Origin: Stramenopiles sp. TOSAG23-3 | Lineage: Eukaryota | Assembly (NCBI GenBank): GCA_900128585.1 | Contig: LT642154.1 | Location: 1 to 62,211, forward strand | Direction of reading: 5' to 3' | Length of the DNA stretch: 62,211 bases | Shown here: piece after piece, positions 12,653 through 53,001 of the stretch | Numbering within the stretch: the stretch's first letter is position 1 | How the letters are laid out: each line of letters opens with the position of its first letter | Notes under the pieces: model-generated | Seen by the model: the letters and a program-made list of their open reading frames with translations, nothing else | Database searches by the model: none | Told to the model about the DNA's origin: nothing | Position numbers and translations under genes: made by a program

Positions 12653-15600
12653 TTAAAATTCGCCAAAAGCTGCGAACGGGTCCTCATCCCCACTGTTTTT
12701 ATCATCATCACCTGGGGCTGCGTTCGCTTCGAAAGCATCTACAGAGCCGAACCCTGCGTTAGCCGCGGCAAACGGATCTTCTCCCCCAGCACTGGCATCA
12801 CCTGCATCAAATTCATCATTGAAGCCACCACCCACCGTTGCAAATGGATCTACATCTTTGGGGGCATTGTCCGCCCCTCCTTTGGATTCTTCGGCTCCAA
12901 AAGCAGCAAACGCATCCCCCCCACCCATAGTGCCCCAGCCGCCCTCGTCACCAGCCCCAGTTTCTGCATTCACATTTGCACTGCTGTCTTTCTCTGGAAA
13001 CGCAGTGTCTCCAGTTGGAAAATTGGCATCTTCACTTCGAAAAGCAGCGTTGCCAGTTGGAAACGCAGCATCACCAGTTGGAAACGCAGGATCACCAGTT
13101 GGAAAAGCAGCGTCGCCGGTTGGAAAAGCGGCATCTTCACTTGGAAAAGCAGCATCCTCACTTGGAAAGGCAGCATCGCCACTTGGAAAAGCGGTATCTT
13201 CACTGGGGAAAGCGGTATCTTCACTGGGGAAAGCGGTATCTTCACTGGGGAAAGCTTCAGCATCCCCAGTTGGAAACGCGGTGTCTTCACTGGGAAACGC
13301 CATAGTAGACCCAAACGGATCAACAGTAGCAGCAGGCGCCTCCTCAACAGATGCTGGTCCGGAATCCGCCCCACTTCTAGGACTATCCGCGTCTTCAAAC
13401 GCTGAAAATGCGGGCTGAGGCTCGCTGGCTACTTCGGCAAACGGGTCACCCGCGGTCGTGTCGACCTCACTGTTCGTTTCTTCAGCTATGGAAACGCCTT
13501 CTGTCGGAGCGCCTCCTTTGAAAACCCTTCCCATTGTCATATTCATCAGATTTGTCCTACTATTGTCATACATCGTATCCTCCTCGTCCGAACTATTTGC
13601 AGAATTAACTGAAGATGGTGATACATTGCCAAATGGTATGCTCTCCTCTTCGTTTGACGAGTTGCTGTTGGGTCGCGGTGGACTATCGCTGCCGAAATTT
13701 GCCCCGAACGCGTCGGACGTGTCTCCAAATGCATTTGCCTGAAACAGCGGTGTCGCCTCAGAGCCACTGGATTCTGCAATGCGCTTCTTAAGGGCATGTT
13801 TCTCATCCAATTTGCTCTCGTGAATTGCTGCTGCAGCTTGAAGGTCGGTCTTGCTCTGGTGGTACTTTGCTTTGGCATCGCTGCGTTTGATCTCCGCTGC
13901 ACGCAGTGTCTCTTTTAAGGCCGCAATCTCTTTTTCGGCTGCTTGAATATTTTCGTTGTGTTTCCCTTGCAGTTGCATAAGAGTGTTTGAGCTGTCATCA
14001 AAGTCTTGTATTTCGCCAGTCACTTGGCGTATTTGATTCGCCAGCCTTGCCTTTGCTTGATCCAGCTCTTGGGTTTTTCCCTTTATAAGTAGGGCTTCCT
14101 CCTTTTTCCCCCAAAGTTCTTCCCGTCTTTGCTCCAAGGATTCCCTTAAAGAAAGAATTTCTTTTCTGAGCAAGTCTTCTCTAGAAGCGCTTTCTTTAAC
14201 CGTTTCTTCTGCTTTTACGAGATCATCAGTCATGTTATCCAGCGTTAAACTTAAAGAGTTCCTCTCAGTCTCCAATTGCTCTACCTGACGCTCCATATTT
14301 CCCACCAAAGCATGGAGATTGCTGGAAACAGCCGATGCAACGCTGCCTGCAGCAGACACGACATTTTTCTGGGCGTTAACTTCGTTGTCGATGCCAGAGG
14401 ACAGCACGTCCAATTTTGGGTGCTGCGGAATAAACGCCATCTGTGGGATCGCTGCAGGTTTTGTTTCTATTTGTGGCTCCTCCATAGAGATGGGGGATAA
14501 AGTGCCCGCCGCGGTTGCTCCATTGTTGGGTTTTGGGACATTGATTTGCATCACCGCAAAGGCGTCGTTGGGAGTGCTCCCAAAGCCGTCGTTGGGAGTG
14601 CTCCCAAAGGCGTCGTTGGTGCTCCCAAAGCCGTCATTGGTGCTCCCAAAGCCATCGTTTGTGCTACCAAATTCCTCGTTGTTCTTCCCGAACCCGTCGC
14701 TGCTGCTGCCAAAACTATCGCTCCTCGGGGCCGGCTCCATTTGTACCGGAGGCTGTAAGATTGTAGCACTTGGCGCTGGCGGCTGCAGCGCTGGCGGCTG
14801 TGGGGCCGCCTTTGTCTTGGGCTCTTCCGTCTTCAGGATAGACATGTCGATTCCCAATGCATTTGAAAGCGTGTTGGCGAGTTTCGTTCCGGGAGACGGC
14901 ATGGGTTCGGGCTGTGGCTCCCCTCCCCACCCGGCTTCTTCCCCCATCACTTCTTCTGGGTTGGCCATGTTTTCGGACTCGGTGCCAGGCTTTAACACCT
15001 CGGGGAGCTCATTTGGCAGCACGCGACCGCGGCGGCTCACTTGAACGATCAGGTGGAACGCTACGCAAAATTCTTCCAAAGTTAGCTTCCCGTCCTGGTC
15101 CATGTCCGACATGATCCATATCTTCCCAAGAATTTGCTGCGGCAAGTTTGATTTCATCATGAACTCCCGGGCCTGTGGCCCCGTAAGGTGCCCCTTTTTC
15201 TCCTTGTCCAGCATGAAGAAATGGTTCGAGTACTTGCCCCTGGTCTCGTCGTCAATCGCCCACGATGAGGACGCCGGCCCCGCCGTTCCCCCTGTGCTTT
15301 GCCCTTGTTGGGCAGGGACTGCGGGAACGGTGGGGTTTGGGATCCCTTCAAAAACTGGGAGCGATAGGTGCGTTGCAGACGTTTCCATAAGAGAGTTGCT
15401 GCTGAGTGAGATCCCGTTTTGGGCCATAGATATCAGGCGCATCGCAGCGTGGAAGTCCCCCCTTGTTAGAAACCCTTTCTGGTCGCTGTCAGCGATGTTC
15501 CAAAGCTCCTTTAATATAGCTGGGGCCACCTTGGACTTTAGAAAAAACGGAACGGCCAGCTGGCCAGTGATCTGATTCCCTTTTCCTGCCGTGACAAAGT

Positions 15601-20000: not shown

Positions 20001-21249
20001 GGCCGTGTTTTGTTTAGACAACCTTGTTACTTCGCACCGCGAAAATTCGAGGTTACTCGCCGAAGCTGGCGGTGTGCTCTCTCTTGTAGCCCTACTCAAT
20101 GACGACGATGAAGACGAAATCAGCAAAAAAGCATTTAGAACGTTGACTAGCATGTCTGACATTGCTCTCAGTGTGATTTTGAGCCACGTCGCTGCCCTCT
20201 GCTGCGGTATAGAGGGTGTCACGAATGCCATTGGCGCGGGCTTGGCTGCTCAAAAGGGGATGCCTGCCCTCTCGAAAGAAGCCTTGGAATCCATCTCCTC
20301 TATTGCAGCGAAAGAGAGAAACTATTATTTGAACATAGACAGCGGCGAAGAAGGCGTGAAAGTGTCGGAGTGGGAGGACGGGTTACCGTCGAATGATGCC
20401 GCTCAACCCGGGACTCAGTCTGGCGCAAGCGTTGTCCTTACCGAAAGTGGGATGGCCGCGGCAGAAGAGTTTGCAGCCCTGTCTCTCGACGGTGCGAACG
20501 CAACACAGTACGACGGTGAATTGGACGATGGCTCCATGCAACGGAGTTCCCCTCCGGTGACCCAGACAGAAATTGTATGGGGGATGCTTGGGAAACTCCT
20601 CCCAGTAGTGAATGGCATAGTTTACAACGATGTGTCAGCGCGCGAATTTCTTTGGCAGGAAGGGAACGGTTTGCCGATCCTTCTCTTTGTTGTAACACGA
20701 GTGCTGCCTTTAGAGTTGCGTGTAATTTGTACTTACATTCTTGCAAACATAACTCAAACGAACGAAAAGAGCCTGCAGATCTTAGCCTTCAAAATGGGTG
20801 CCTTCAGTGTGCTGAACTCCTTCCTCAAGGAAGTGGACAGGAACGACGACGACAGCGACGGAGAGGATGGGGGGAACAATGCGAAAGATACTATTTCTAT
20901 AATATTCACGGTGCTTCACAATTTGTTGCGGCAAAATTTTCAGAATGCCCAGCAACTGTCGGGCGAAGAGTACGGGTACTTGCTGAAGCTGGTCATCAAC
21001 TGTTGCGCCGACGGGACGGAACCCGAGCTTCGGAACGACGCTGCCAATGTCCTGTTGGCAATAGTAGAACTTGCCCTGGAGGAAGTTGGGCCGCTACAAA
21101 ACCGTTTGTTGGACGAAACTATCGACGCAGCGGGCGCCTTGCAGATAATTGGGGAAAGTTTCGATTCGTCTCTTGGCCATGCCATGAAAGCACGGGCTGA
21201 GCAGGCTGCACGTGGTCTTCGGACGTTGAGTGGGGAGCTGAAGAAATGA
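17024..21249 (+). CDS. Large armadillo-repeat protein; one gene split by a 1-nt frameshift near 17882-17885
   Basis: ARM motifs (GGVRALADCL, GGVLSLVALL, NQ...G.L..L); adding one G to the G4 run joins both ORFs as HKAGGLRLIVPSL. Confidence 0.75.
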
Positions 21250-23789: not shown

Positions 23790-26700
23790 ATGCTGGGTTC
23801 TAGTGGTATAGGGGCCTTAGGGTCGACGAAAACGATGTCGAAAAGTGAGGAGGAAAAGTTAAAGAATGCGTTGCCGCAGTGGCTGGATGATATGCGAAGT
23901 GATTTGATGTCCAGCCCAGAGTGGCAAAACCTCACGACTGTAGTGTACCACTCTGTCCAAGACCGCCTGAAGCAAAACCACATTCAGTTCTTTTCTGACC
24001 TGAACGACATCGAGAAAACGCTGTTTATAGATGAAGTGGAGCGATCCCTGGCTAACGATAGCATATACAAGGGGTTCCAAGGCGTCCTGAGCCGTTCCCT
24101 GGACGAATCCCTGTCGAACAAAGTTGAGGAGGAGCTGTTGACGTCGGGGAGCAGCAGGGAGAACAAGGTCACCATGATATTGGACCGTGCTGCCGAGGGG
24201 GCGACGAAACTGCTGAGGCGACTGCCGAATGAGAAAAGCACTTTGCGCATCATGCTGAACCACGAACTGCCCGGACCCCTGAGGCGACAGGCGTGGGGCA
24301 TGTTCCTTGGCCACCCGGAAGCACGAAAAAAATTCGATCGGGACTTCCTCCAGTCCCGCATGTCCACCATTTCAGAGCAGGACGCAGACATTTCCAGCAA
24401 ATGCCAAGTTATGATAGACACGAAGTTTTGTGAGATCGACGGCCACCGGACGGGGACGCTGATATCACTCATGAAGACCACCCTGTCGTACTACGAAGTC
24501 CTGACGCAGAGGGATTTGGACGACACGTACTACTACCTCGCGATCCCATTGAGCTACGTGTGGTGCTCCACGTTTACCGAAAGCGCCGCCGTGATCGAAG
24601 CGTTCATTGCCCTGATGGAAATGCCTCGTCCAAAGTACATGAGTTCCGTCATGGACGTTCTTTCGGCCACGCTGAAGACCCACGACGGGGACCTGTACGA
24701 ACATATTGCACAGATCAACGCAACTTCCACGACATCGATCTCCGGAGTGACCACGGACACGTTCCTTGCGAATCTGTTGAAGAATGTTGTCCTTCGCATG
24801 TTTGTCGGGACGTTGTCCATGCCAGTGTGCTGCTACGTGTGGGACCAAGGCTTGCTTCTCGGGTCATTCGAGAAAGTTATACCCAACTTTGCCGTTACCT
24901 TGATGGTAGTGCTGCGCGAAAATTTGCTGGCCTCTCCGACCCCGGCGCAGCTGCAGCGCACAATTGATGTGCACTCTCAAACCGTGGAACTTCGCAACTT
25001 CCAAGGAGTCGCCGAGCGGCTGTTCATGGACAACGTGCGGACGAAGTTGGGCATCAAACGTGACTTTGCCGGGGACTTGTTCGAGGCCGTGGATTACGAA
25101 AATAGACAATTTGATAGAGGCGTTCCGGGGCTGGATGGTTCTATGGATTGGGACAGTTTCGCGCTTGCGTCGTCTGGATCTCCGCGCAGCCCCGTGCGGC
25201 GTCGAGCAAACAATATTCAGCTGTTGCCGCAGCCGCAATCCGTCAGCCCTTCGGCAAAGGGCCGAGGTACATCGTCCAACGCCTACAAAGTAGAGGACAA
25301 CTTGACGACGAAAAAACGGTTTGACGACCACATGAGCGCAAAGGCCAAACGACGGGAGGAGAAGGAAGCCGCCAAGATGAAGAAAAGGCGACAGCATGCG
25401 GTAGAGGATGCAGAAGAAGCGCTCGCGATCGCCGAAGAGGAAAGGGAACAAGAGCGTCACATGACCAATTTGGCGCAAAAGAAAGCCCTGCAGGCTAGGC
25501 GAGAACAGTTTGCGGCCCATCGTCGTGAGCGAGAAATGGAACTGAGAATGACGGAGGCAGCCGAGAGAAAATTAAAGGACGAGCTTCAGGGCAAAGCAAT
25601 AGAGGACGAGCGCAAGCGCATTAACGACGCATCTATGTACGACGAACATGCCGTTTCTGAGATGGAACGACAGAAGCAAGACTTAGAAGACAGGAAAGCG
25701 GAAGCGCGGGGGGATAATTTCGTGGTGCAGAAGAAGAAGTACTTGGGTGCACCCAATGCCCCGAACATGAAATTGAAATTGAAGCGGTCCGATGGCACAG
25801 AGCACAAAATATCTATCAAGGCCCTGGTGATGGGTGATACGGAGGAGGATGCGCGGTTCCGCGTTCAGCACGCTTTGGAGGAAGAGGGCATTGGAATCGA
25901 CAGAACGCCAAAAATTTTAAAGGCCCTGTACACGTTTTCAAAGCAAAAGACCAATTACAAGGCGGACTGGACGCCATCCAACCAGAGCTCTGCAAAATCT
26001 AGTCGAACCATGACACCGAACAGGTCGGGGCGAAACACACCCGTCAGGGATCCGAACAGTGTAGATACGCACGTGTACACTTTCACGTTCCACGCCGTCG
26101 ACCTAGGTTTAAAATTCCAAGAAGACCGAAGGAGCCCCGGGGCTATCGGCTGCCTCGTGAAGACCATAAAGCCCACGTCCGAGGGGATGAAGAATTTCAT
26201 GGTATGGCAAGGCGATAAAATCACGGGTGTGGGGGATTCGGATGTAAGCTCCTTTGACCTGGAAACGTTGACAACCACCCTCAAAGATGTAAAACGACCC
26301 GTCACCCTTAAGTTTACCAAGCACAAACCTTTTCTGGGGGCTGCCAACACGCCCTCGTTTCCCTTATCTCTGCGCGACGCCCACAAGAAGAAAGTAAAGA
26401 TTAATATAAAGGCTATGGTCGCCCCGGAGCATGATGGAGACGCACAACACCGTGCCGTGTGGGTTTCCTTGATCACTGGTGCTGGAGAAGGCAACATTCC
26501 GAAAGTATACCAAAGTATTGTCGATTTTACCAAAAAGAGGGGTTACAAGGTTCCTCCAGCCCCGGAACCCGAGCCAGAGGTAGAGGTGTATGTAGATCCA
26601 AAAATGAACTTTGGGGAGTACGACGTTATCTTTGAAGAACAGAAATTAGGGATGATTCTGGACCACGTCGAGGGCAGCAAAGACGTTGTGGTGAAGAAAA

Positions 26701-27798: not shown

Positions 27799-30700
27799 AT
27801 GGCGTCGCTCGCCGCGGAGAGCAAGCCGTGCGACGAGGCGTCCGAGGCCTGGGACGATGGGGATTTTGAGTTTGGTACGGAGGGTAGTGGTGACGACGAA
27901 GATAGTGCTTTTAAGGACGGTTTTTCTGACAGTGATAACGATGATGAGGACTGGGACATGCTATGCGAGCCAGACGAACTCGACCATGGCAGCGTTGCAT
28001 CCCCGCCAGCGTCGGAGACGCAGAGCGACACGTCGGAGTGTTCACCCTCCGCTGTTTCCAGTTCCTTGTCCCGGTTGCGGGACATATTCTCTTCCGAGGG
28101 GAATGATTCTGCGAAAGAAGAGAACCTGCCACTGCTGTCCGTCTTACAAGAGCGCGAAGATGAGTTTGTTTCTCAGAAAAAAAAGGTGTTAGAACCGGGG
28201 GAAATACCAGAGAATGACTTAACAGACAGGACGCAATTCTTAATGTTCCAACTGCAAGATTTAAGGAAGGGCCGGGGGGCTGCCGGCTCCACCTCGAGCA
28301 GCGAGGGTGCCCTCTGCCAGACGCTGAAGGAATTGGCACTCGTTAGCTACGAAGCCAGGGACTATAAGCGCTCGGTTTCTTATTTTATAGAGCTGTTGGG
28401 GAAATACACGCTTGAAAAAAATCGGAATGAGTTCATGTATATTGTAGAAGCTATCGCCAAAATTAGGAGCTACCAAGGAAACTTTTCTGCGGGAGAGGAA
28501 GAATTAAAAAAACTAATAAGTAAGTTGCGCCGAGTCCACCAAAAAGTCAAACGGAATGCAAATGACGATATTGACGACGTTTTAGAGTCTAGAAGTCTGA
28601 TGGAGTGTATTCAGACGCTAGAAATTACCAGAGCCAGGCTATGCATGGACGGGGGGCTTCCCGAGCATGCGGCACATATTTTGCTGTCTGTCGCCTGCAG
28701 CATAGACCTCGACAATGCCGCTGATACCGACAACGGCGATTTAAAGCTTGACATTGTTCTTTTGTGGCTTGCGAAAGCGTACCTTGAGGCAGAGGCACCA
28801 AGTCGCTGCATAAGTGTGTTGAATCGAATAAAGTTTGTTCGTGAAAAAGTTGGGAACATCAGCACCAGACGCCGTCGACGGCGCAGGGCCCTGACGGCCA
28901 TGCTGTTCCAATCCCTATTTGAACCGTGCGACCCTCCTGATTACTCCCTCCTTGTAGTTCGCTACCGAGTGCTCGTGAAGGATTTTCGAGGCGCGTTGTG
29001 CTGTTTTGCTGCTTTGAAACTTCTACGGAAAGAGTCGGCGAGACAAGAGATCGCCGAGCTACAAAATACAGAAGAGGAGACTAGCGTGGGATTTGACGTT
29101 CAGCAGGAAACACTGGCCGGTGGTTTTGAGCTTGAGGGAAACATTTTGGCCCAGACAACCCTGTACGGCACAGTTCACGCTAAATTCCCAATGGTGATTA
29201 AACCGGACCTTTCTGCGGTCCGTGTCGATACCAGGGCAGAGGGGGATGAGGGCATTGATCGCTCAGAGCGTGAGAAGCGGGAAGAACGTGCCATCAAGCA
29301 AGAAAGCTACACTGTAAAAAATTGTGCCGCCGCCGTAAGGATGTGCGTAGCAAATTACCAGCGTGCGTATGATACACACACGTCCCTTGGTGACCATAAG
29401 CGAGCAATGGACATGGCACTTGCGATCGCGCGGGTCCAAACAGCAGCGCTGTTCGACGCAGTGTTGCCTTGCATGGTGCAAAACTACGAGCAAAGGAAAC
29501 AAATGGATGGCAGTCCTGAATCTCCCATAGACATTCTAAACTCTATCGGGACTGTGACTAACAATTTTGATGATATTGAACACCCGGCCATCTTCGCATA
29601 CAACCGCTCGAGGCAAATGGGCCTTCCTCTGAAGAACATTGAATGTGCTCTGGTGCTGGCAGAGTACGAGTATTTACGAGGGAACGAAGGGGGCAAAAGC
29701 GAAGCATTTTGGAAAGAGGCGTACGAACTTTTCTCTTACTTGTTCATAGATGGGGCGACAGTCCCGATTCTGCTTCAGTCACCAAAGTCTCTGACTCAAA
29801 GAATCATGAGAGTTTTTTCTAGAATTATCATGCTGTTCTTTGCTCTACCTTTACCACTGGAAAACCCGTGCCTGTATTTGCTTGACGTGTACATCCACGC
29901 ACAGTACGATGTTAGACGCCGAACGGATTTCCAGGCCATTTCGGAGACGTTGCCGGTAGTGTTCCAATACCACAAACAGCGAAGTATCAAGTTTCGCGGT
30001 CGGAGTGCGTCGGGGGACAAGAATTCCGACAGAGCCTCTTACAACCGTTGGGATTCATTTGTAAAAAACGCTGACGGTGAGGCAGTGTCCTCGGAATTTT
30101 GCTACGGGTGTTTGTTGAAAATAGAACGAGCATCTTCGATCTTGAGCAAAACAAACGCCCCAAAGGAAATATACAATGCTACCAAATGGGATCGTATGGA
30201 GTGGGCTCACGCAATGGTCTGGAAGCGCAATAGAAGTGGGCAGCCTCAACGCGATGAGCTTGGGTATCAAGATGTACTAGCGAAGGCAGTGAACAAATCC
30301 ACTGGAAATAGAATCCTTGCAGAACGTCTCCTGAGACTTATCTATTTGCTGAAAGTAGATAATTTCGTCTTTTCGTACTCACCTCACACCGGGTTCAGAC
30401 AAATTCTGTTGAGCACAGGAAAAGGGTCGAGCATTTCGCTCAAGTCGGCAAGCTCCTTCGGGAGTACTGCGAGCCTGCCGCTTTCGAGCGATGCGACCGA
30501 GAATGGGGCATTGTCGTCTTCCGACGCCGCAATACCTTACGTTCATAAACTGTCGCTGAGGGGCGACGTTAGAAAATCTTTAATCCGCAGAATTATGGGA
30601 AGCGCAAGAAAACATAGACAATGGAAACGATCTAATAGTGTGACGGAATTGTCTGGTGCCCGTAGCGAGATCGTCAAGGACAGGGGTAGTACAGAGAATA

Positions 30701-32008
30701 GGGGGGGGCGGGGATTCTTCAAACGAGCATCCGAGTGAAGACCGTGAAATGCTGACGCCCATACAAATACTATGCAATTCTTTGAAAATTGCAGAGTTGG
30801 TTGGCGGCGTCGTTCACAGCGCGGAAGATTTTCAAAAACAGCATGATATCCATGTCAGGGGAACTGATGTTGCGGAGGCACCCTCGGAGCAGAAAAAGCT
30901 TGGGTTTTTCTCGTCTGTATTTTCAAGGCGGGTGAAAGTAAGCAATGAGATTAGATCTTTGAAACCCGCAAAAGCCCCGGTTACGTTTGTGGTTAGCCCA
31001 GCATTAAGCATTATCCCGTTCGAAGACGCTTTGATACACGTCGGTGAAGACTCATACCGGTCACCGTCGTTGCTGTTTAGTGCGATTGTCTCTTTGAGCG
31101 GCGTACAGACCAAAACGGGGAACAGCAGACCTTCGCGTACCGTGTCCACCCGGCTAAAGCGTTTGCCAAAAGTCCCAAGCTTCATCGCATTCTGCTACAA
31201 GACCCGCAGACCACTAAGAATGTTTGTTACGGAAGAAATCAGGAAACGAAAAATGCTGCGAAGAATGTTTTTTGAGTTGAACCATTTGGTCCAAAAGTCA
31301 AACCCAATGAACCCAGAGCCCACTGAAATCGATGGGCCTCCCATTCAAACGCGGAGAATTTTTGAGGAAAAGAGGGTTTTCTTTTCATTTCTAGGGAGGA
31401 AATCACGGCCATTAGAAGAATTTGCGCCGTTTCAATCGCCGCTAGTAACGCATGGCCATCCTCAAAAGCATATGAACAACTCGTTGCCTGGTTTATTTGA
31501 GTTCGTGAACGGTCCGAACAAATTGAAAGACGCGGCTGAAATAGTGTCTCTCTTGGACGGTCCCACGAGCGTTGAAGGAAGAGTACCCGTTCTTTTGTTG
31601 ACCTTTGCAGACCTTTTGGAAGCCGGAGAGCCGCTGCTGCATATCATGGGATTCCGCCCAGACGTACGTATTTTGTATGTTGCCCACCAACACTACGAAA
31701 AAGTGTCAAAATTCTTGATAAAGGTTTTTGTAACCGCAAAGAAGTGCACTGATCGTGACGAAATCGTTTTGAAGAAAGAGAAAGAAAAGCTCCAAAAGAA
31801 CGCGAAAAGTTCTGGGGAAAACAGGCCAAAGAAGGACGGGGACGGCGACGACGCGGAGAACCCTGCCGACGCCGATGGCATCATTCGCCAAAAGCTAAAC
31901 TTGCCGGAGGAATGGGCGTCCCTGGACGCAATCCTGCAATCATCGCGGCAAGTGCTGATGAAAAAATACAGCATATCGACAATTCTTCAAGGCCCATGGG
32001 AAGGGTAG
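27799..32008 (+). CDS. Large helical/TPR-like protein, acidic N-terminus, possible CHAT-like remnant; +1 frameshift at the G8 run near 30701-30708
   Basis: Overlapping 979 aa and 450 aa ORFs join if one G is removed; TPR-like helices; 'FVVSPALSIIPFE'. Confidence 0.6.
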
Positions 32009-32216: not shown

Positions 32217-32407
32217 TTAACCAGCCTTGAGGCAAACCACGGTATCTTCTAAGAAATTGGCTTCTTTGTTCTCCACATCCGTAATAACAACACATTAATA
32301 TCTATCCCGCATTGCGCCAAACACCCACCGCTCCAGTCTTTTATTAAATGATCAATATTGCTGGTCTCTAGTTTTTCGGTTTGCCTTTTCCAAGTTCTTC
32401 TGTTTGC
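32217..32407 (-). pseudogene. Possible decayed gene 3' fragment
   Basis: Higher-GC island; one frame reads SKQKNLEKANRKTRDQQY*SFNKRLERWVFGAMRDRY*CVVITDVENKEANFLEDTVVCLKAG*, followed by the recurring 3' motif in sense orientation. Confidence 0.25.
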
Positions 32408-32474
32408 TCTGATTATATTGTAAACTTAATAATATAGATACAGCATTAAACCAGTCGGTTAAAAAATGTTAAAA
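32406..32474 (+). repeat. Dispersed ~69-nt non-coding repeat, copy 1
   Basis: About 7 differences from 37133-37200. Confidence 0.85.
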
Positions 32475-37099: not shown

Positions 37100-37132
37100 A
37101 TATTATCCCTCATCCCTAACATTATATTGTAT

Positions 37133-37200
37133 GCTCTGATTATACTGTAAACTTAATAATATAAACACAGCATTAAACAAGTTGGTAAAAAATGTCAAAA
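37133..37200 (+). repeat. Dispersed ~69-nt non-coding repeat, copy 2
   Basis: Near-identical to 32406-32474. Confidence 0.85.
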
Positions 37201-44245: not shown

Positions 44246-45928
44246 TCACTCCTTCTTACCCACCATCTTTTCGACCTCATGCCGTTCCAACAGTTCATTG
44301 TAGACGTTCCATTTTACAGAATGGGATACTAGCATTTTTGTGCTGTTACAAAGCTGACACTTAACGAACCGATCGCCTTCCACCTTCTTCCCGATTAAAT
44401 TCCCTTCATTGCCGTGTTCAATGATGGCTTCAAATGCATCCCCGGAAGACAATATACCGTGTATTTCTACTGTCGAATACTCCCCAGTTGCTCCCTCTCC
44501 GCCACCAGGTGGGTGAATAAGAATTTCTGAGACAGCCGCCCCGCGGCGCGCATCGTGCCTACTTTTCCCATCGGTAACGACTGCTTTTGCCGATTTTTGA
44601 ATCTCTGCAAGTCTGGCCTTTATCTGCTGCTCGGCACCCATCTGGGCAGGCTCATCTGGTTTTGGTGCCACGGATTGGTTCAGCCAAACAGTGTCATTGC
44701 TGTACGAAGTATCCGCAGCTATGACATGAAAAGTGTTGGACTCATTTGCAACAACAAGAGGCGCGTCGCCATCAGGTTTGTGGCCCGTAATAATTCTATT
44801 TATCCCATGGTTTTGAAGATCTTTTACAATTGCACTAGATGGCAAGGCCGGAACAAGGTCCTGCGTGCCACGCCAATCGTTGTACACCACCGTTTGGTTC
44901 CTTTCACGCGTTGGAAGCCATCCCATCCCATACTGAAGTATGTTCCAACACGATGCTTCCCTGTACCCCCCTACCATAGCCCAGGCGTCCGCATCCTTCT
45001 TTATTTCCTCGGGCCCTTCCTCCAGGCATTTTTTTATTTCGCGGGCTGCAAAGGCGTTCAACTTCCCTGCCCACTCCACAATATCCTTTTCACGGTAGTC
45101 TGGCCTCTCCGGGTTCCAGCCTAAGGATCTCTCGTCGATTGCGCCATGAACAAATAAGGTGTCATTGAGCACCAGTGCCAAGGACCCACATTTGAGATAC
45201 TCTGCAAAAATCCCGTCCGGTTTTAAATTGTCTACGAAGCTATTGTAAACTTCTTCGTCTGTGGCAACGCCATTTTCCGCCTCTTTCAACTTGGTCAACT
45301 CCACTCGCCGCAGTTCAAACGCGTTGCCCGACCCCATGGTGCACGAAAGTATCCATTTAAGCCGCTCCACACGATCGTGGGGCGAAGGGTCCCCCTGAAT
45401 GCCCAGACGGGCGACCGTATCTTTCGGGGACTCCTTAAAAAATATTTTTGTCCAGAAAGTTCCGGGGTAGTCGTCCCACGGGTATTTCTCCATATGCGCT
45501 TCGGACAGTTCCTGGACCAGACGAAGTTTGTTCATGTCACGGTTTCCGAGAATGAAGTGAACACGATTGGGATACTTCCGCTTCAACTTTACAAGCTGCT
45601 CCACAACGTACAGGTCTCCATCGCATTGATCGTTTACGTCACCGCCGAACACAAAGTGGCACCCGTCCTTGAGAGAAATGTCAACCACATTGCCGTCGTC
45701 GGCTTCTCGTTCTACACTAAGTATTCTTGAAATTTTCAGGTAGTTGTCCCAAAAGTACCTATCCCCTTCAATGTCCGTAACATAACCAATGACAGTGGGC
45801 TTAGATGCCGCTTTCGCAGCAGCAGACACAGCACACGAAGTATTCATACCCCTTGCATGGAAATACGTTGACGCGACGAACGCACACAACGGGGTTTGGA
45901 AACGCCTAAACAACAAGCGGGTGTTCAT
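44246..45928 (-). CDS. Calcineurin-like metallophosphoesterase with probable mitochondrial transit peptide
   Basis: Ordered motifs DIEG, GGDVND, GNRD, FVHG, GHKP, DTS; R/F/L-rich acid-free N-terminus. Confidence 0.8.
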   Translation of the reverse strand: MNTRLLFRRFQTPLCAFVASTYFHARGMNTSCAVSAAAKAASKPTVIGYVTDIEGDRYFWDNYLKISRILSVEREADDGNVVDISLKDGCHFVFGGDVNDQCDGDLYVVEQLVKLKRKYPNRVHFILGNRDMNKLRLVQELSEAHMEKYPWDDYPGTFWTKIFFKESPKDTVARLGIQGDPSPHDRVERLKWILSCTMGSGNAFELRRVELTKLKEAENGVATDEEVYNSFVDNLKPDGIFAEYLKCGSLALVLNDTLFVHGAIDERSLGWNPERPDYREKDIVEWAGKLNAFAAREIKKCLEEGPEEIKKDADAWAMVGGYREASCWNILQYGMGWLPTRERNQTVVYNDWRGTQDLVPALPSSAIVKDLQNHGINRIITGHKPDGDAPLVVANESNTFHVIAADTSYSNDTVWLNQSVAPKPDEPAQMGAEQQIKARLAEIQKSAKAVVTDGKSRHDARRGAAVSEILIHPPGGGEGATGEYSTVEIHGILSSGDAFEAIIEHGNEGNLIGKKVEGDRFVKCQLCNSTKMLVSHSVKWNVYNELLERHEVEKMVGKKE

Positions 45929-46530
45929 GCCAACAGACAGAAAAATGGGGAAATGTATAATGAATACTTCAAATGTAACGTCCTTGTTCGGCCAGTCCCC
46001 TGCTCACCTTTGGACGAAGTCAAAGATCTTTCTCGTTTTAGTGGGAGGCGAACCGCAACAGACCAGAACACGTTGTACATTTATAAAACAACGGGCAGCA
46101 CACACAAAATAAAATAAGCCGATCGAAGAAAGAAGAAGAAGGGGAAGGAAGAAGAAGAAAATAATTTTTTTTAATAATAACCTCTAATAATAAATATACC
46201 GGTACGATACAAAATACTGATGATGAAAATAATACCAATGGTATTATGATGATGTCAGTCCATCCTCATATCTCCCTCCTCCTTCCTTCCTCATCCTCTC
46301 CTTCTTTTTTTTATGATGAAGAAGAATTATTAATAATGATGATGCTTCTTTTTTTTTTAATTACCTGGTATTTCATCAGTACGTACAGCTTCAAGTTAAA
46401 TGCCTCAACTATACTCGTATACATTATATTTGTTTACTTTTTACTTGATTTTTCACATCCTTTTTTCTCCAAGAGAGAGGTGAAAATATAGATATTTGTG
46501 TTACGCTTGTGGAAACCAAGAGAGGATTCT

Positions 46531-48687
46531 ATGTGCAGTATATTTATTTGCTGCGGTCCCAGTTGGGGGGCCGAAGCGGGCAATCAGTACGACAAGTTGG
46601 ACGAAAAGGCCTTGGTGCAATCGTTAGTCAAGACAATACTGCATCTACGCTCTGTCGGCCACGGCAATCGAAAGACGGGGAGGGGAAAATGGAATGGTTT
46701 GACCCTTGCCTTTCCAGACACTGTTGTGGAGGGTGCTTTTATAACCTACTTGTCGTCGCTGCGGCAAAACGCGACTCGCTCATCTTTGCTCATGTTGTCC
46801 TTTCAGTACATATTGTTTCAAATATTTTCCTGGCAGACCACGGACTACGTTGACCTTGCGCTCCGAGGGGGCTACGTCATTTTCCTTTTAACGCTGTTTT
46901 CTTGCTCGTTCACGGAGCTGTACAAGCAGAATGTCCAAAAGTGTTCGTTGGCAGTGGCGCTTATAACGTTCTTCGAAGCTATCGCAGAGGCAGCGCTGCT
47001 TGGAAACTTGATTTCACCGTACACGATACTGATCCTCGTCGTGCTGATGGCAATGTGGACCGTCTTCGTACGCTTTCGGTTTATTTACGCGGTAACGCTT
47101 TGTACATCAACCATTGTCGCGTACAATGCTGTCTGTTTTATTCTGCTGGGAACAGGCCATATTCATGTTTACGTGCCTGGTAAAGGCGGTTTGGGAACGC
47201 TTATGCTGTACTACGACTGCATTCTGATCATCACGGCGGTGACCATTGGTAAGATGTCGCATCGGTTCGAAGTTCAAACACGGTACAATTTCTTGTCGTA
47301 CTGTGCGAATGCACAGGAGTCCAACCCAGGAATGGTCTCCCCCAACATCGGTGGACCGCGGCAAAGCAGTGAGCGAGACCGTGTGAGCGTGCTAGAGACC
47401 GCAGAGGGCCTTCTCGGAGTCGGAAACAATTTTGCCCCAGCAAGCGTGGGAACCAGTCCGTCCCGAAGTTTAGGCTTTACGGCCCGCTCGTCGGTTTCGT
47501 CGTACGGTAAAGAAACGCGCCTGCCCCTCTTGGGAGAGGAGGACAGTTCGTCGGTGTACTCTACCTTTGCCCGCAACGGCGCCGGCGGCAGTGAGACTGT
47601 AAAGCAAGAGTACGAGGAGGACCTGACGTCCAGCTCCTTGCGGGCCTCGATGACGAGTGGAGACGACCATAATGAGGGGACCGTATCGGCGATCATGAGC
47701 GCGCTTGACCGAATAAAGGAAGCGCACCAGGTCAGAGGGTTTTCCGGCGGGTCTGGCCTTATCTCCAGGCGCCTGGACGACATAGTTCGTGATAGTGGGG
47801 CAACGTCCAACATTGATTATTTAAGGGACGCAGCAAGCCTATCGAAAGAGAGTAAAGTCTGCTCAAACATTGACTGTCCCCAATGGTACAGCCCGTACCC
47901 GTACATCTACTCTGGCTACCGCATATTTTACAGCGTTCCCATGTGCTGGAAAAGCATTTTTCAATGGCACAACGAGACGATGAACATTTGGACGGAGATT
48001 TTCCCCCTGGTGTTTTTTACGGCGTATTCGATTGATTTTATGACGAACAACGAGGCGGTCCAAGCTGCCCCCTTTGCTGACAAACTCATCATTGGGATTG
48101 GACTGTTCGGTTGTGTAATATTGCGACCGATCATCAGCGGAGCGGCCCACACGTTCAGCTGTGAAAGCTCTTACAAGTATGTCTTGTGGTGGGGTATGGA
48201 CTACTTTAGTATATGCGTAGCAATCGTCTCGTCTTCGCTTATTTACAGTCGCTTCACGTGGTACTGCGAGCCGCAGCAGTATATTTTTTACGTAATCTCC
48301 ACCGTCGGCTTGCTAATAAGCACGCTTGTTTCTGTGCTGTATGTAGCATCCGGTGGTGTGCGGCTGGGCTCGTTTATACTGCTGATCTGTCTCGCGAATG
48401 TCCTGCCGTTGGTGTGGCAAATTACGCTCCAGTACACCGCAGACGAGGGGGAGAAAGTGCCTCCCGAGTTCCTTTTTTTTTGGATATCTGGGGGTGGCCT
48501 GATGGTTTTGGGTTTGCTTATCAAATCTTCCATGATTCCAGAAATCTGTTGCCCCGGAAAATTTGACCTGTGCGCGTCGTCGCACAATTGGTGGCACTTG
48601 TGTATTAACGGCGGCTTTGTAGCGCTTTACCCCGCAATAGAGATTTATTTGAAATTTCGGAAGGGTAACATGTGCGTAGTGCCGTAG
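46531..48687 (+). CDS. 6TM adenylyl-cyclase-anchor-like domain fused to PAQR/HlyIII (adiponectin receptor-like) 7TM domain
   Basis: 'YIYSGYR...SIFQWHNETMNIWT', SxxxH (SGAAH), 'MDY', HxxxH (SHNWWH); six N-terminal hydrophobic segments. Confidence 0.8.
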   Translation: MCSIFICCGPSWGAEAGNQYDKLDEKALVQSLVKTILHLRSVGHGNRKTGRGKWNGLTLAFPDTVVEGAFITYLSSLRQNATRSSLLMLSFQYILFQIFSWQTTDYVDLALRGGYVIFLLTLFSCSFTELYKQNVQKCSLAVALITFFEAIAEAALLGNLISPYTILILVVLMAMWTVFVRFRFIYAVTLCTSTIVAYNAVCFILLGTGHIHVYVPGKGGLGTLMLYYDCILIITAVTIGKMSHRFEVQTRYNFLSYCANAQESNPGMVSPNIGGPRQSSERDRVSVLETAEGLLGVGNNFAPASVGTSPSRSLGFTARSSVSSYGKETRLPLLGEEDSSSVYSTFARNGAGGSETVKQEYEEDLTSSSLRASMTSGDDHNEGTVSAIMSALDRIKEAHQVRGFSGGSGLISRRLDDIVRDSGATSNIDYLRDAASLSKESKVCSNIDCPQWYSPYPYIYSGYRIFYSVPMCWKSIFQWHNETMNIWTEIFPLVFFTAYSIDFMTNNEAVQAAPFADKLIIGIGLFGCVILRPIISGAAHTFSCESSYKYVLWWGMDYFSICVAIVSSSLIYSRFTWYCEPQQYIFYVISTVGLLISTLVSVLYVASGGVRLGSFILLICLANVLPLVWQITLQYTADEGEKVPPEFLFFWISGGGLMVLGLLIKSSMIPEICCPGKFDLCASSHNWWHLCINGGFVALYPAIEIYLKFRKGNMCVVP

Positions 48688-48809
48688 AGAAATGTGAGTG
48701 CGTGCAACAAGAAAAACTCGTGGGGGAGATTGTAAAAGAAATCTTAATTCTTACGTATAAAAATTATATATTTATCGGTTAAGATATCGTATTGTAGGCT
48801 TTGGTACAT

Positions 48810-49829
48810 TTATATAAAGAGAGCAATCGACGACATCATTGCAAATCCCATCGCATAAGCAAGGAGCTTGGTCAGATGCAGGCGCTTTGAGCCCATTTTT
48901 TTTCCACTACTCATGAGAAGCTCCTTCGCGCCAATTTCAAGCACCGAGATGTACAAGAAGACCCCAGCAACGACCGCCTTAATAACAGGTGATATGTAAT
49001 TGCTCCATACCGAAGTTTCAGTCACTGACTCTGGGACGAACATGCCCACTATGATTCCCAAGGGAGCACTGGCTGCAAAAGCGATTGAAACTTTCAACAG
49101 CGGCTTCCAGTCTTGCGTTACATTTGCAGCAGCACCACCGAGAGAAAACCCCGCAAAAATTTTATGAGCCAGTACAGCAATGATAATCTCTGTTGATTCC
49201 AAGTTTGAACCCGTAACGCTGATGGAAAACCCAAGCAGAATGCTGTGAAAGATTAGCGCGAAGAAAAGAGAAAGAATAGACCGTAATGACACGTGCAAAT
49301 GCGACGTGATGTGGCCGATATCGTGGTGGTGCACCTCCTCCTCGGAGCAATTCACTGCAGTGCCGTACAGAAGGATAGGGTCGGTTAACTCAGGCAACAA
49401 CGTTTTCTTTGACTGCGGGTTCTTCTTCGAAAAATCAATGTAGATTTCACCCTGGGAATGGTCTGCGTCGCCCTTGGCTTCGATTGATGGGGTTTCCCCG
49501 TGTCCATGGCACCCATGACCATGACCATGTTCGTTCCCCACCCGGTCGCCGTGGCCAAGCTCTTCGAGTACTAGCATAATTAAAAAACTGCTCGCACAAA
49601 TAACGTTTGCCCAAGGCATGGCGCCAGAGTTTAAAGCGGAATCCTGCGCGTCGGCAAGTTGGTGCACAATTGCCGCCGACAGTAAAACACCCGCAGAAAA
49701 CATGTTTCCAATAGAAAATAGTCCACCGTCCTTTTGCTTTACAAACCTGGGCAACAGGCACGACCCAGCGCCAAAAGCAAACAAGACGAGGACAAATATG
49801 ATATCCTCCCACTCTGATTTCCTTGCCAT
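48810..49829 (-). CDS. ZIP (SLC39) zinc/iron importer
   Basis: 'FSAGVLLSAAIVHQL', His-rich loop, TM4 'FHSILLG', TM5 'AHKIF', 'AGVFLYIS'. Confidence 0.9.
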   Translation of the reverse strand: MARKSEWEDIIFVLVLFAFGAGSCLLPRFVKQKDGGLFSIGNMFSAGVLLSAAIVHQLADAQDSALNSGAMPWANVICASSFLIMLVLEELGHGDRVGNEHGHGHGCHGHGETPSIEAKGDADHSQGEIYIDFSKKNPQSKKTLLPELTDPILLYGTAVNCSEEEVHHHDIGHITSHLHVSLRSILSLFFALIFHSILLGFSISVTGSNLESTEIIIAVLAHKIFAGFSLGGAAANVTQDWKPLLKVSIAFAASAPLGIIVGMFVPESVTETSVWSNYISPVIKAVVAGVFLYISVLEIGAKELLMSSGKKMGSKRLHLTKLLAYAMGFAMMSSIALFI

Positions 49830-50099
49830 CTTCTTCCACAAATCAGACAACGTATGTATTATTCTGTTTGTCGTTTGTATCTGTTCGAATTGCGATGATG
49901 AAGAACTATTTATGTGTCTATTTCTTTAAACAGAGATTGATTTTATTTAAACTACAAATATTATGTGTTTGTTTCAAAATTGGTCAGCGTATATATATAA
50001 TCAAATAAAATTCTTCGTTCGACGATCATCGATGATGGGATATGGGATATGGGATGGAATGGATGATGATGAAGATATTTTTACTCTAGTTATTACGTG

Positions 50100-50109
50100 G
50101 TACCGGTAC
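50100..50109. promoter_or_regulatory. GTACCGGTAC palindrome in the ZIP/ZnT bidirectional spacer (TACC-N0-3-GGTA family)
   Basis: Perfect 10-bp palindrome; relatives occur in most upstream spacers. Confidence 0.35.
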
Positions 50110-50764
50110 GGAAGTCATGATGGTAATGCTATTTCTATACAAAAAATAACGACAAAAAAAAAAAGAAAGCAAACGACTGACAACGGAAAGACCTGTTTTT
50201 TTCTTTTTTTTAATCCTTCTCCTACTATCTCCTAATTAAAAAGCTCTACTACAACAAAACAACAAAAAATTCAATTTTCAAAAAAATCATAATATTTAAT
50301 ATAAATCCATTGACTACTGTAGCATAGACAGAACAACAAAGAGAAATAATCACCACATTTTTATTTATTATTAACAAAAAAACCAACAATTCTTCTTCTC
50401 CTTTTTTTATTTTTATTTTATCTTTTATTACATTATACCAGCTATTTAGTATGTGTATCATACAACAAAATAGAAGAGGAGTAGTATTATAGTAAAAATA
50501 ATACTAGTCGTCTATTATTACAATACTACGAACGAGGACAATGATGAGAGAATAAAATGAAAATGAGATTATGATGAAATAGTTAGTTGTCTGGTAAACA
50601 TTCCATTGGGAATTACTTATCAGAAAGAATTGAAAAATATAGATAAAAGGCAATGTTCTTGTTTCATTCCATATCGCGAAATTGTTTTGTGTTTTGAGGG
50701 TTGCAAGTGAACGTTTCGTCCAAAAGAAGAGTTTCCAAGCGACCGACAGAAGTGTTTCAGCGCC

Positions 50765-51964
50765 ATGGAAGACGAGCAAGAGGCGTACCAACACGCGCGG
50801 CGGCAGTTGCTCTGTGCAAGTTGCTGTTGTTTCCTCTTTATGGTCCTTGAGGCTGTTGGGGGTTGGTATGTTGGTTCCCTTGCGGTGATGAGCGATGCCG
50901 CGCACCTTCTGGTTGATTGCGCAGGGTTTGCAATGAATTTGGTCGGACTGTACGTTGCACAGAGGCCAAAAACGTTAAAGTACACGTACGGATACCAGCG
51001 AGCGGAGATAGTCGGGGCAATCATGAGCGTCTTACTGTTGTGGTTACTGACGGGAATTATACTGTACCAAGCTGTGCGCCGCCTTTTCCACCCTGAAGAC
51101 GTCAAAGGCATGGAAATGTTTGCTATTGCATCGTGTGGACTGGGCGTCAATGTGATAATGGGCGTGATTTTGGCCCAGTCGGGGCATGGGCATTCTCACG
51201 GTCTACCTGGACAAGAATGTTCTCACGGCGGCCACGACGCAGATGAAGAGGACCCGCAACCCTCCCATTCCCATACACATTCCCATTCGCATTCTCACGG
51301 CCATGGTCATTCCCCATTGCACGCGCAGAGTAGCCATGCTAATTACCATTCCTTGGATCAGGACCCAGACATGGGGCGCAAGGCCAAAGCTACAAAAAAA
51401 CAAAGCATGGCCGTTCGTTCCGCATTTTTGCATGTTCTTGGGGATGGAATCCAGTCCGTTGGGGTGATGATTGCGGCTGGGCTGATTTGGTACAAACCAG
51501 AATGGAAGATTGCCGACCCGATCTGCTCGTGTTTGTTTGCTCTGATAGTTCTAGCGACGACCCCTAAAATTCTGAAGCAAGGCTTGGGAATTTTGATGAA
51601 TGCAGCGCCCACCAACATGTCCAGACAAATGTATACCGAGCTTTATTCAGTGGAATGTATAAAGGATGTACACGATCTTCACCTTTGGCCCTTGACGTCG
51701 TCTGGAAAATTGGCGCTGACCGTCCACCTCGTTGCCACCGACAAGGTGAAGGCGTTGAAGATGGCGCAGATCATTGCGATGAAAATGGGTGTTCGACACA
51801 CTACGATCCAGGTTGAGTGCGGCGATGAAGTTTCAAATTGTGCAAAAGTGAATACCCACCAATGTGTGATGGACGAGGCGGAATCATTGCAAGCGCTTTC
51901 CGCGGCAAACTCAGAGGACGAAGACGCCGAGTGCGAACACCATCACCATCATCACGAGCATTAA
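50765..51964 (+). CDS. CDF/ZnT (SLC30A2-like) zinc exporter
   Basis: 'SDAAHLLVD', 'TYGYQRAEIVGA', His-rich loop, 'HVLGD', 'VHDLHLW', 'HTTIQVE'; C-terminal poly-His. Confidence 0.95.
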   Translation: MEDEQEAYQHARRQLLCASCCCFLFMVLEAVGGWYVGSLAVMSDAAHLLVDCAGFAMNLVGLYVAQRPKTLKYTYGYQRAEIVGAIMSVLLLWLLTGIILYQAVRRLFHPEDVKGMEMFAIASCGLGVNVIMGVILAQSGHGHSHGLPGQECSHGGHDADEEDPQPSHSHTHSHSHSHGHGHSPLHAQSSHANYHSLDQDPDMGRKAKATKKQSMAVRSAFLHVLGDGIQSVGVMIAAGLIWYKPEWKIADPICSCLFALIVLATTPKILKQGLGILMNAAPTNMSRQMYTELYSVECIKDVHDLHLWPLTSSGKLALTVHLVATDKVKALKMAQIIAMKMGVRHTTIQVECGDEVSNCAKVNTHQCVMDEAESLQALSAANSEDEDAECEHHHHHHEH

Positions 51965-53001
51965 TTTATTTTTGTCGGGAAAGGATTCGTGTTCAATAGT
52001 GCAAATCTGTCGGGAAATGAGTATAGATTTGTGTGTTTATATTTTGTATTTAAAGTATGGGTTGTTAAATAAATGTCTTTTTTGATTTCGAAAAAATTAA
52101 TTAAATCGTAAACTGAATTTACAGTAGTATCATTTGCGAACTACCAGTACTCCAACAAACTCCAAATCATTGAAGTTTTGGGGAATACGAGGAGTTAATA
52201 TATGATAGGTAAAAAAAAGTAGTATTTTTTGTATACTATAATATGATTTCAAAGGAGACGTTGGGACGAGAGCAAGGATGCAAGTATCTTTGGCGCGGAA
52301 TTGAAAAATGGTAAACAGCTTTGTGCTAACTATTTGAGGCAAAGAGATCTTCATGAATAAAGGATAATTTTCGCAAATTGAAAGTGTCAAATATGCTTTT
52401 TGATACACAAAATTATGCCCGTACAATTCGTTTCCCCAACATCAACGTTTGAACAAGTGTTTGGTCGTGTCGCGTTTGGTCTAAATCGCCCAATTCACAA
52501 AAAATTGTCCCTAGGAACCACAATTCCAAGTCATTTGAAGGCAAACAATTTATAAACGTTCGTTCGGGCACGGAATTCGTCACATGAACGATCACCTGAT
52601 CTAAACTTATGTCGTTAGGTGTCTCCCTTGCTTTTATTTGTCATTTTCTGGCCGAAAGCTTCCACACATTGAAAATCGAGTCGGATTTTTTTTCGCGCCA
52701 AGGACACTGCACACTTTGTTGAACAGGTGTCTATCAAAGCCTTTTACGAAAAAATTAACATAGAATAGCATTAGCCTTTATCTCGACAAAATTTACACTC
52801 GGAATAATTTACAACATATTGGAATTGCATTAACATTTTTTTAGAGGTTGAACATTTGTCCCCGGCCGAGCACGTCTTCTTATCCCTCTCTTTCTCTGCC
52901 AGAATGTGCAAGGACTGCTTCAACGTCATTCTCAAGAAGCTCTACCCAGATCTCTTTGGGAGTGCTCCCCGGATATGAAGCACTGCGCCATGTCCGGCAA
53001 C

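Follow-up and report, generated by a model that had tools for sequence, protein, structure and literature searches.

Do three adjoining genes that can each be connected with zinc form a zinc-homeostasis locus, or did they become neighbours by happenstance? The question is raised by positions 46531–51964 of a stretch of 62,211 nucleotides (nt) from Stramenopiles sp. TOSAG23-3 (contig LT642154.1; the whole stretch is referred to here as the window), in which an earlier note, made from the letters alone, had recognized genes for a PAQR protein, a ZIP importer and a ZnT-type exporter of the CDF family, and had proposed that they constitute one eukaryotic zinc-homeostasis locus. Three intronless open reading frames (ORFs) are indeed present side by side where that note had placed them: PAQR (long form, 718 amino acids (aa), 46531–48687, plus strand), ZIP (SLC39A1/2/3-like, 339 aa, with a His-rich loop, 48810–49829, minus strand) and CDF (ZnT2/3/4/8–MTP1 type, 399 aa, 50765–51964, plus strand). 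As the note had stated, ZIP and CDF are oriented head-to-head over an AT-rich spacer of 935 nt (49830–50764, 30% GC, from the ZIP start to the CDF start), and the 3' end of ZIP lies about 120 nt from PAQR; in the ORF table the two genes converge, their stop codons being 122 nt apart (48688–48809). The note was also right in that ZIP and CDF represent unrelated families, one bringing zinc into the cytosol and the other removing it, and thus duplication cannot account for their pairing. In our interpretation these are probably three separately transcribed, ordinary membrane-protein genes that became neighbours by happenstance in the gene-dense genome of an uncultured marine protist. Their neighbourhood would then be lineage-specific, and neither assembled nor kept by selection as a zinc unit.

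The arrangement was looked for in relatives by scanning metagenome contigs with a ZIP alignment, which provided 19 loci. The ZIP of the nearest relative, 55–59% identical to that of the window, is carried by contigs L001 and L003, in which 10 kb could be read on the 3' side of the gene. Its convergent neighbour there encodes an ion channel of 1983 aa that contains a cyclic-nucleotide-binding domain, the ORFs beyond the channel gene had no family match above threshold, and neither PAQR nor CDF was found beside ZIP within these 10 kb. In tblastn searches of the 19 ZIP loci, CDF matched none of them and PAQR matched only L002, a contig of the same species, and none of the other 23 window proteins matched L001 or L003. 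Thus, gene order in general is no longer preserved at this distance and the PAQR–ZIP linkage is absent there, which is what the earlier note itself had named as an argument against the trio as a linked locus. In a distant ZIP locus (L010, 26% identical) the flanking genes encode CTLH and pyridine-nucleotide oxidoreductase proteins. The channel encoded by L003 (1450–7401, minus strand) has an unusual architecture of its own, with four Ion_trans and four Ion_trans_2 stretches in addition to the cyclic-nucleotide-binding domain.

Linkage was also assessed by comparing the sizes of contigs that carry relatives of the three proteins. For the window's own species, the longest contig is one and the same for ZIP and CDF (27,498 nt), and thus a fingerprint of this kind can work. 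The contigs were 7305, 7596, 11353, 6556, 93782, 253058, 27509, 12127 and 5633 nt long for the CDF relatives, 21248, 16396, 8650, 61471 and 8792 nt for the ZIP relatives, and 68320 and 16345 nt for the PAQR relatives, and no size was common between families. This comparison argues against conserved linkage, without proving the point. The serial names of EukProt proteins (g4896.t1 for the ZIP relative; g14810.t1, g12897.t1 and g8183.t1 for CDF relatives) are not number neighbours, and were given no weight.

The head-to-head orientation is not special to ZIP and CDF. The gene set of the window comprises 24 ORFs chosen from 29 of at least 200 aa (standard code), the five that lie within longer ORFs (832–1434, 1259–1912, 14391–15044, 20577–21200 and 24864–25520) having been dropped. 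Among the 23 junctions between these genes 8 are divergent, 8 convergent and 7 tandem, with a strand switch at 16 of the 23. The divergent spacers are 589, 1373, 1332, 1156, 1062, 602, 935 and 1212 nt long and contain 28–35% GC, so that the spacer between ZIP and CDF is typical of the eight in both length and composition. Clearly, head-to-head pairing is the default layout of this genome. The proposed bidirectional promoter has, in this respect, an ordinary layout, and the co-regulation of ZIP and CDF is possible.

The arrangement itself is real. An independent metagenome contig of 1201 nt (L002) contains the end of PAQR and the end of ZIP at 99.5–100% identity, and the stretch is present wholly or partly in 20 public marine runs from 13 studies, one of which runs may have been the source of this DNA. 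Contigs of four runs, one marine metagenome (X6) and three metatranscriptomes from three studies, were compared with the window. DNA contigs of X6, which is likewise independent, bridge PAQR to ZIP, and ZIP through the spacer to CDF, and the small population indels in them are confined to spacers. Thus, the arrangement is not an assembly artefact, and it is stable within the species. All three genes are expressed, being under RNA contigs in each of the three metatranscriptome runs, and no splice joints were seen, though such contigs cannot rank expression levels. The PAQR RNA contigs extend over 46940–47372 and 47656–48702, whereas single contigs include the entire coding sequences (CDSs) of ZIP (48789–49880) and CDF (50693–52058; a contig from a second study begins at 50698). 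Thus, within the 122-nt spacer the PAQR contig stops at 48702 and the ZIP contig starts at 48789, and on the other side the apparent ends of the ZIP and CDF transcripts are about 810 nt apart, each close to its own TATA-like element. The interval between these ends (49881–50692) is without RNA contig cover in the three runs, save for low-complexity pieces of unrelated contigs, and a contig gap of this kind proves nothing. With such transcript ends, ZIP and CDF would each have a core promoter of their own, about 810 nt apart, and their expression, if it co-varied, would do so as a side effect of the one open intergenic region that they share.

No zinc-specific element could be singled out among the motifs of the promoter regions of the three genes. 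The GC-containing palindrome TACCGGTAC is present in both of these regions, at 46197 and 50100, and was considered as an element specific to the trio. It was rejected as such, since the wider pattern is spread over promoters of the whole window: TACC(N0-3)GGTA has 11 matches against 1.65 expected, and 10 of the 11 fall in intergenic 5' regions (2055, 16392, 27518, 35424, 40790, 46197, 46233, 46362, 50101 and 56209), the remaining one, at 9610, being inside a CDS. Three copies occur in the spacer upstream of PAQR, and the palindrome GTACCGGTAC (50100–50109) is the copy in the spacer between ZIP and CDF. In this organism, TACC(N0-3)GGTA probably serves as a promoter element of a general kind. 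Repeats of GATGATGAAGA (9 matches against 1.17 expected) have intergenic matches only in the two promoter regions of the trio, and their remaining matches are in coding stretches rich in D and E; they were judged to be microsatellite-like ATG/GAA runs and rejected as a regulatory element. The TATA-like 12-mer AAAATATAGATA (50634–50645, plus strand) lies 48 nt before the start of the CDF RNA contig, and its exact copy at 46483–46494 lies 37 nt before the PAQR ATG. Together with three one-mismatch copies, these are its only occurrences in the window, all intergenic and 5' of a gene, and we read it as a core-promoter element. When promoter pairs were ranked by shared 9-mers, the PAQR promoter and the ZIP/CDF spacer were second of 78 (73.5, as compared with 86.3, 71.5 and 63.2); this value is not an outlier but falls within a continuous distribution, and the common words are mostly (ATG)n/(GAA)n-like.

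The ZIP protein matched the Pfam family Zip (PF02535) over profile positions 6–323 of 323 (E 8.5e-41, 140.7 bits, cut-off 35.1), and matched TIGR00820 with an E of 2.8e-27, under the cut-off of that profile. A member of its cluster is named 'solute carrier family 39 (zinc transporter), member 1/2/3' in a JGI source, and a phmmer search of solved structures gave only a match to the run of His residues. H195/S196 and H222/K223 are invariant in all six aligned sequences, and these His residues are located, as we take it, in the metal-site helices of transmembrane segments (TM) 4 and 5. In ZIPs an acidic residue usually comes after the first metal-site His; its position is taken by Leu here, and therefore the metal specificity of this ZIP is uncertain. 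Its family membership suggests that it imports zinc, or a related divalent metal, to the cytosol.

The CDF protein matched Cation_efflux (PF01545; E 2.6e-44, 151.8 bits, cut-off 26.6) and TIGR01297 (268.9 bits, cut-off 82.35), and its closest solved structures are those of ZnT8 (7y5g, E 1.7e-65) and of ZnT3 and ZnT4 (E about 1e-56 to 1e-57). The HD–HD zinc site ascribed to it in the earlier note was confirmed: H47/D51 and H223/D227 fall in the same alignment columns as the HxxxD motifs of TM2 and TM5 of ZnT8, and all 8 aligned relatives (58–72% identity) have them unchanged. A putative cytosolic C-terminal dimerisation domain scored 22.5 bits with ZT_dimer (cut-off 26.7), and the alignment with ZnT8 extends through residue 352. 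Among the named relatives, a EukProt entry with 'MAST' in its name was the best, followed by oomycete CDFs, an order that points to a stramenopile, and plant MTP1 and animal ZnT2/ZnT8 were also represented. The window CDF resembles human ZnT8, ZnT3 and ZnT4 (SLC30A8/3/4) and plant MTP1 in its HxxxD/HxxxD transport site and in its His-rich cytosolic loop (about residues 139–190), but its identity to named proteins is 39–46% at most, and it has an extra C-terminal tail of acidic and His residues. Judging by its family, it would be a zinc/proton antiporter that moves zinc from the cytosol into a vesicle or vacuole. A scan of viral contigs revealed no relatives of ZIP or of CDF. On the 3' side of CDF, between convergent genes, the summed contig depth in X6 reached 870 at 52206–52400, as compared with about 6–8 elsewhere, and many loose ends were present; this suggests a repeated or low-complexity element, and a repeat search within the window detected no second copy of it.

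The PAQR protein consists of three parts: a six-helix membrane module (about residues 55–264), a disordered linker (about 265–440), and an AdipoR-like domain (477–698), which matched Pfam HlyIII (PF03006; E 2.3e-26, 93.3 bits, cut-off 26.2) and AdipoR2 (5lx9, E 6.6e-22). A model of this domain, based on 11 sequences, gave TM-scores of 0.73–0.78 with AdipoR1 and AdipoR2, normalised to the target. As had been claimed, the zinc ligands are retained: the S..H, D and HxxxH residues of AdipoR2, which we take to be those that bind zinc in AdipoRs, are matched in the alignment by S536, H540, D557, H685 and H689. None of these five residues varies in a set of 5 sequences, and in a set of 11 each is either invariant or conserved to at least 90%. 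However, this site is a family-wide catalytic site in which zinc would serve as a cofactor, and it is not a mark of zinc homeostasis. The inclusion of PAQR in a zinc-homeostasis trio is thus unsupported, both because of this and because of the absent PAQR–ZIP linkage in L001 and L003.

The N-terminal part of PAQR (residues 1–270, encoded by 46531–47340) points in another direction. Its predicted model (predicted local distance difference test, pLDDT, 79.7; predicted template modelling score, pTM, 0.76) has six transmembrane helices and a long exit helix. In a VIA-align comparison it was matched best by the membrane part of ImcA (8wcn; Z 17.6, 202 aligned residues, root-mean-square deviation (rmsd) 2.7), and by the adenylyl cyclases AC9 (6r3q; Z 15.6, 190 residues, rmsd 3.1) and AC5 (8sl3; Z 14.8, 206 residues, rmsd 3.1), followed by the cyclase Rv1625c (Z 10.4) and by unrelated helical proteins at about 10 and below. 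The same structures were at the top in Foldseek, weakly (E 0.007 or weaker). The module is thus predicted to have the fold of adenylyl-cyclase membrane domains. No class III cyclase catalytic domain is present in the 718 residues of PAQR, HlyIII being the only Pfam family found, so that PAQR is not a cyclase and is similar to cyclases in the membrane module alone.

This composition is not limited to the window protein. Two relatives, of 704 and 711 aa, can be aligned with its entire length at 52–57% identity, and one of 828 aa at 35%. The first 270 residues matched 22 cluster representatives, nine of which were scanned by Pfam: six of the seven long ones (678–850 aa) end in HlyIII, the seventh (P0216, 742 aa) and a protein of 390 aa (P0218) were without a Pfam match, and one of the nine was an unrelated bacterial adhesin. 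Relatives of the long form are P0206, P0207, P0209, P0213, P0217, P0219, P0220, P0222 and P0229. Thus, PAQR belongs to a conserved long-form family in which a module predicted to be of the cyclase type is joined to an AdipoR-like domain instead of to a cyclase; no description of such a fusion was found in the literature searched. As compared with human AdipoR1 and AdipoR2 (PAQR class I), the protein is alike in the seven-helix fold and in the complete zinc site, but differs in having about 440 extra N-terminal residues, including the six-helix module. In two reports, the membrane domains of adenylyl cyclases are proposed to be lipid receptors (PMC11606603, PMC4821796), and the cyclase-type module suggests the handling of lipids or signals, not of metals, by PAQR. 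By this composition, PAQR would be an AdipoR-like zinc-dependent membrane hydrolase or receptor with a sensor-like six-helix module of the cyclase type.

On the other hand, several observations weigh against neighbourhood by happenstance. In a simulation on assumed values (8,000–16,000 genes, 4–16 ZIPs, 4–10 CDFs, random gene order) at least one adjacent ZIP–CDF pair appeared in 0.2–3.9% of genomes, and a head-to-head one in 0.06–1.4%. The adjacency of the two genes by chance in one genome is therefore rare under these copy numbers, though the figures are weakened in that the pair was singled out post hoc in a scan of very large size that would have drawn attention to many sorts of 'related' pairs. 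PAQR, ZIP and CDF all have RNA contigs in the same three runs, the exact AAAATATAGATA is common to the promoters of PAQR and CDF and occurs nowhere else in the window, and the promoter regions of the trio rank high for shared words. Moreover, L001 and L003 end 233–255 nt upstream of ZIP and another contig (L006) starts inside ZIP, so that the side of ZIP that faces CDF in the window lies beyond these contigs, and the argument from contig sizes is indirect, as gene calling and search sensitivity both affect it and only the longest contig is reported. Additionally, the co-regulation of such genes would make biological sense, as in yeast Zap1 co-induces a ZIP, a CDF and PAQRs. The passages of PMC2535606 on the Zap1 regulon name ZRT1, ZRC1, IZH1 and IZH2 as induced by Zap1, the latter two under 'other zinc homeostasis genes'; the earlier note had also pointed to an implication of yeast PAQRs (the IZH genes) in zinc homeostasis.

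The alternative that survives best is that ZIP and CDF are a selected head-to-head pair, co-induced from the shared spacer when zinc is low, with PAQR as a bystander. We consider it unlikely, but a real possibility. By analogy with yeast, the uptake capacity would in such a pair always be matched by vesicular sequestration, which would protect the cell when zinc returns. As described in the same part of PMC2535606, the importer and the vacuolar CDF are induced jointly in yeast, and the induction of ZRC1 protects cells in zinc shock and so explains 'zinc shock resistance'; genes of the same three families as in the window thus answer one zinc signal. However, the yeast genes appear there under separate ORF names, with zinc-responsive elements (ZREs) of their own, and are regulated in trans, while no ZRE-like element or Zap1-type regulator was identified at the window locus. 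Closer in layout are the fungal pairs PRA1–ZRT1 and aspf2–zrfC, which, in the sections of PMC3386192 that concern them, have a common upstream region, are co-regulated and are kept across fungi. ZIP and CDF too share an upstream intergenic region, while PAQR and ZIP, being convergent, share none. In the fungal pairs the partner of the transporter is a secreted zinc scavenger and not a CDF, and according to those sections their synteny extends from Ascomycota to Basidiomycota and their co-regulation and joint function were established by experiment, whereas the window locus is known from sequence and contigs. In C. elegans, too, one zinc enhancer can drive two head-to-head zinc-induced genes, as is described for the HZA enhancer of mtl-2 and T08G5.1 in the part of PMC12239621 devoted to it. 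These genes similarly have a zinc-responsive upstream region in common, but the products of such pairs are not a ZIP together with a CDF, and the enhancer and the transcription factor are known there. In the full-text literature searched, no paper on a head-to-head ZIP–CDF pair in a eukaryote was found.

These precedents, the shared 935-nt region, the RNA contigs of both genes and the low chance of their adjacency per genome under the assumed copy numbers are consistent with a co-induced pair. Against such a pair are the general nature of the motifs found, none of them of a zinc type, the distance between the transcript ends, each near its own TATA-like element, the divergent layout that is the default in the window, and the contig-size comparison, which gave no sign of linkage in relatives. 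A bolder form of this idea, which we regard as doubtful, is that in a lineage of bacteria-eating marine flagellates ZIP and CDF would be a selected head-to-head module run from one zinc-sensing spacer, with uptake and vesicular sequestration rising together, either for protection against zinc shock or for loading and then recovering the zinc of food vacuoles. The latter would be analogous to Dictyostelium, which is described in a preprint as poisoning its prey with zinc (bioRxiv 10.1101/356949).

A reciprocal switch in the spacer, with ZIP on and CDF off under zinc limitation and the reverse in excess, as envisaged in the earlier note, seems very unlikely. The opposite directions of transport by the two proteins would fit it, as would the opposite regulation of ZIPs and ZnTs in animals (excess zinc represses zipt-2.3 and activates cdf-2 in C. 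elegans, according to the same part of PMC12239621). However, there is no cis-element evidence for such a switch, and ZIP and CDF have RNA contigs in the same three runs, though contigs cannot rank their levels. Finally, the view that all three genes form one zinc-homeostasis locus seems extremely improbable: the IZH1 and IZH2 targets of Zap1 (in the passages of PMC2535606 cited above), the exact AAAATATAGATA common to the PAQR and CDF promoters and the second place of their regions for shared 9-mers are in its favour, but PAQR and ZIP are convergent and have no common promoter, are unlinked in the nearest relative, and PAQR is a member of a long-form family whose cyclase-type module points to lipid or signal handling and whose contigs, of 68,320 and 16,345 nt, have no counterpart of equal size among those of ZIP and CDF.

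The upstream neighbour of PAQR (44246–45928, minus strand, 560 aa) is divergent from it across 602 nt, as had been noted, but its designation as a metallophosphoesterase gained no profile support. It had no Pfam match of the metallophosphatase kind even at E up to 10, and gave only sub-threshold hints (TIGR03729, E 0.042, 13.3 bits, cut-off 148; the PPP phosphatase BSU1, E 0.43), so its identity is uncertain. Elsewhere in the window, ORFs of equal lengths (560/560 and 419/419 aa) were considered as products of a segmental duplication, which was rejected, as they have no BLASTP similarity and no DNA repeat. A 65-nt direct repeat, 89% identical, is present at 32401–32465 and 37128–37192, in two intergenic regions 4.7 kb apart. 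The same-strand ORFs at 27799–30738 (979 aa) and 30749–32008 (419 aa) are separated by 10 nt, neither has a Pfam match, and they may belong to a single gene that is broken by a stop or a frameshift or contains a short intron. The ORF at 8122–12480 encodes a 1452-aa protein with TPR and GT41 (O-GlcNAc transferase-like) parts, which is presumably about 400 aa longer than the usual enzyme.

Taken together, these results favour a reading of the locus in which ordinary members of three well-known families adjoin each other. Since the three genes do not stay together in the nearest relative, further work on a doubtful 'locus' can be spared. If the pairing of ZIP and CDF is nevertheless under selection, it would be a eukaryotic example of an importer and an exporter joined compactly to one control region, and would offer a way into the question of how grazers in the ocean that have not been cultured manage with zinc that is scarce and patchy; if it is, moreover, a zinc-sensing module, it would be the first described eukaryotic importer–exporter pair of zinc genes with a common promoter region. 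The more unusual item of the locus is PAQR, in which a module predicted to be of the cyclase type is joined to an AdipoR-like hydrolase domain.

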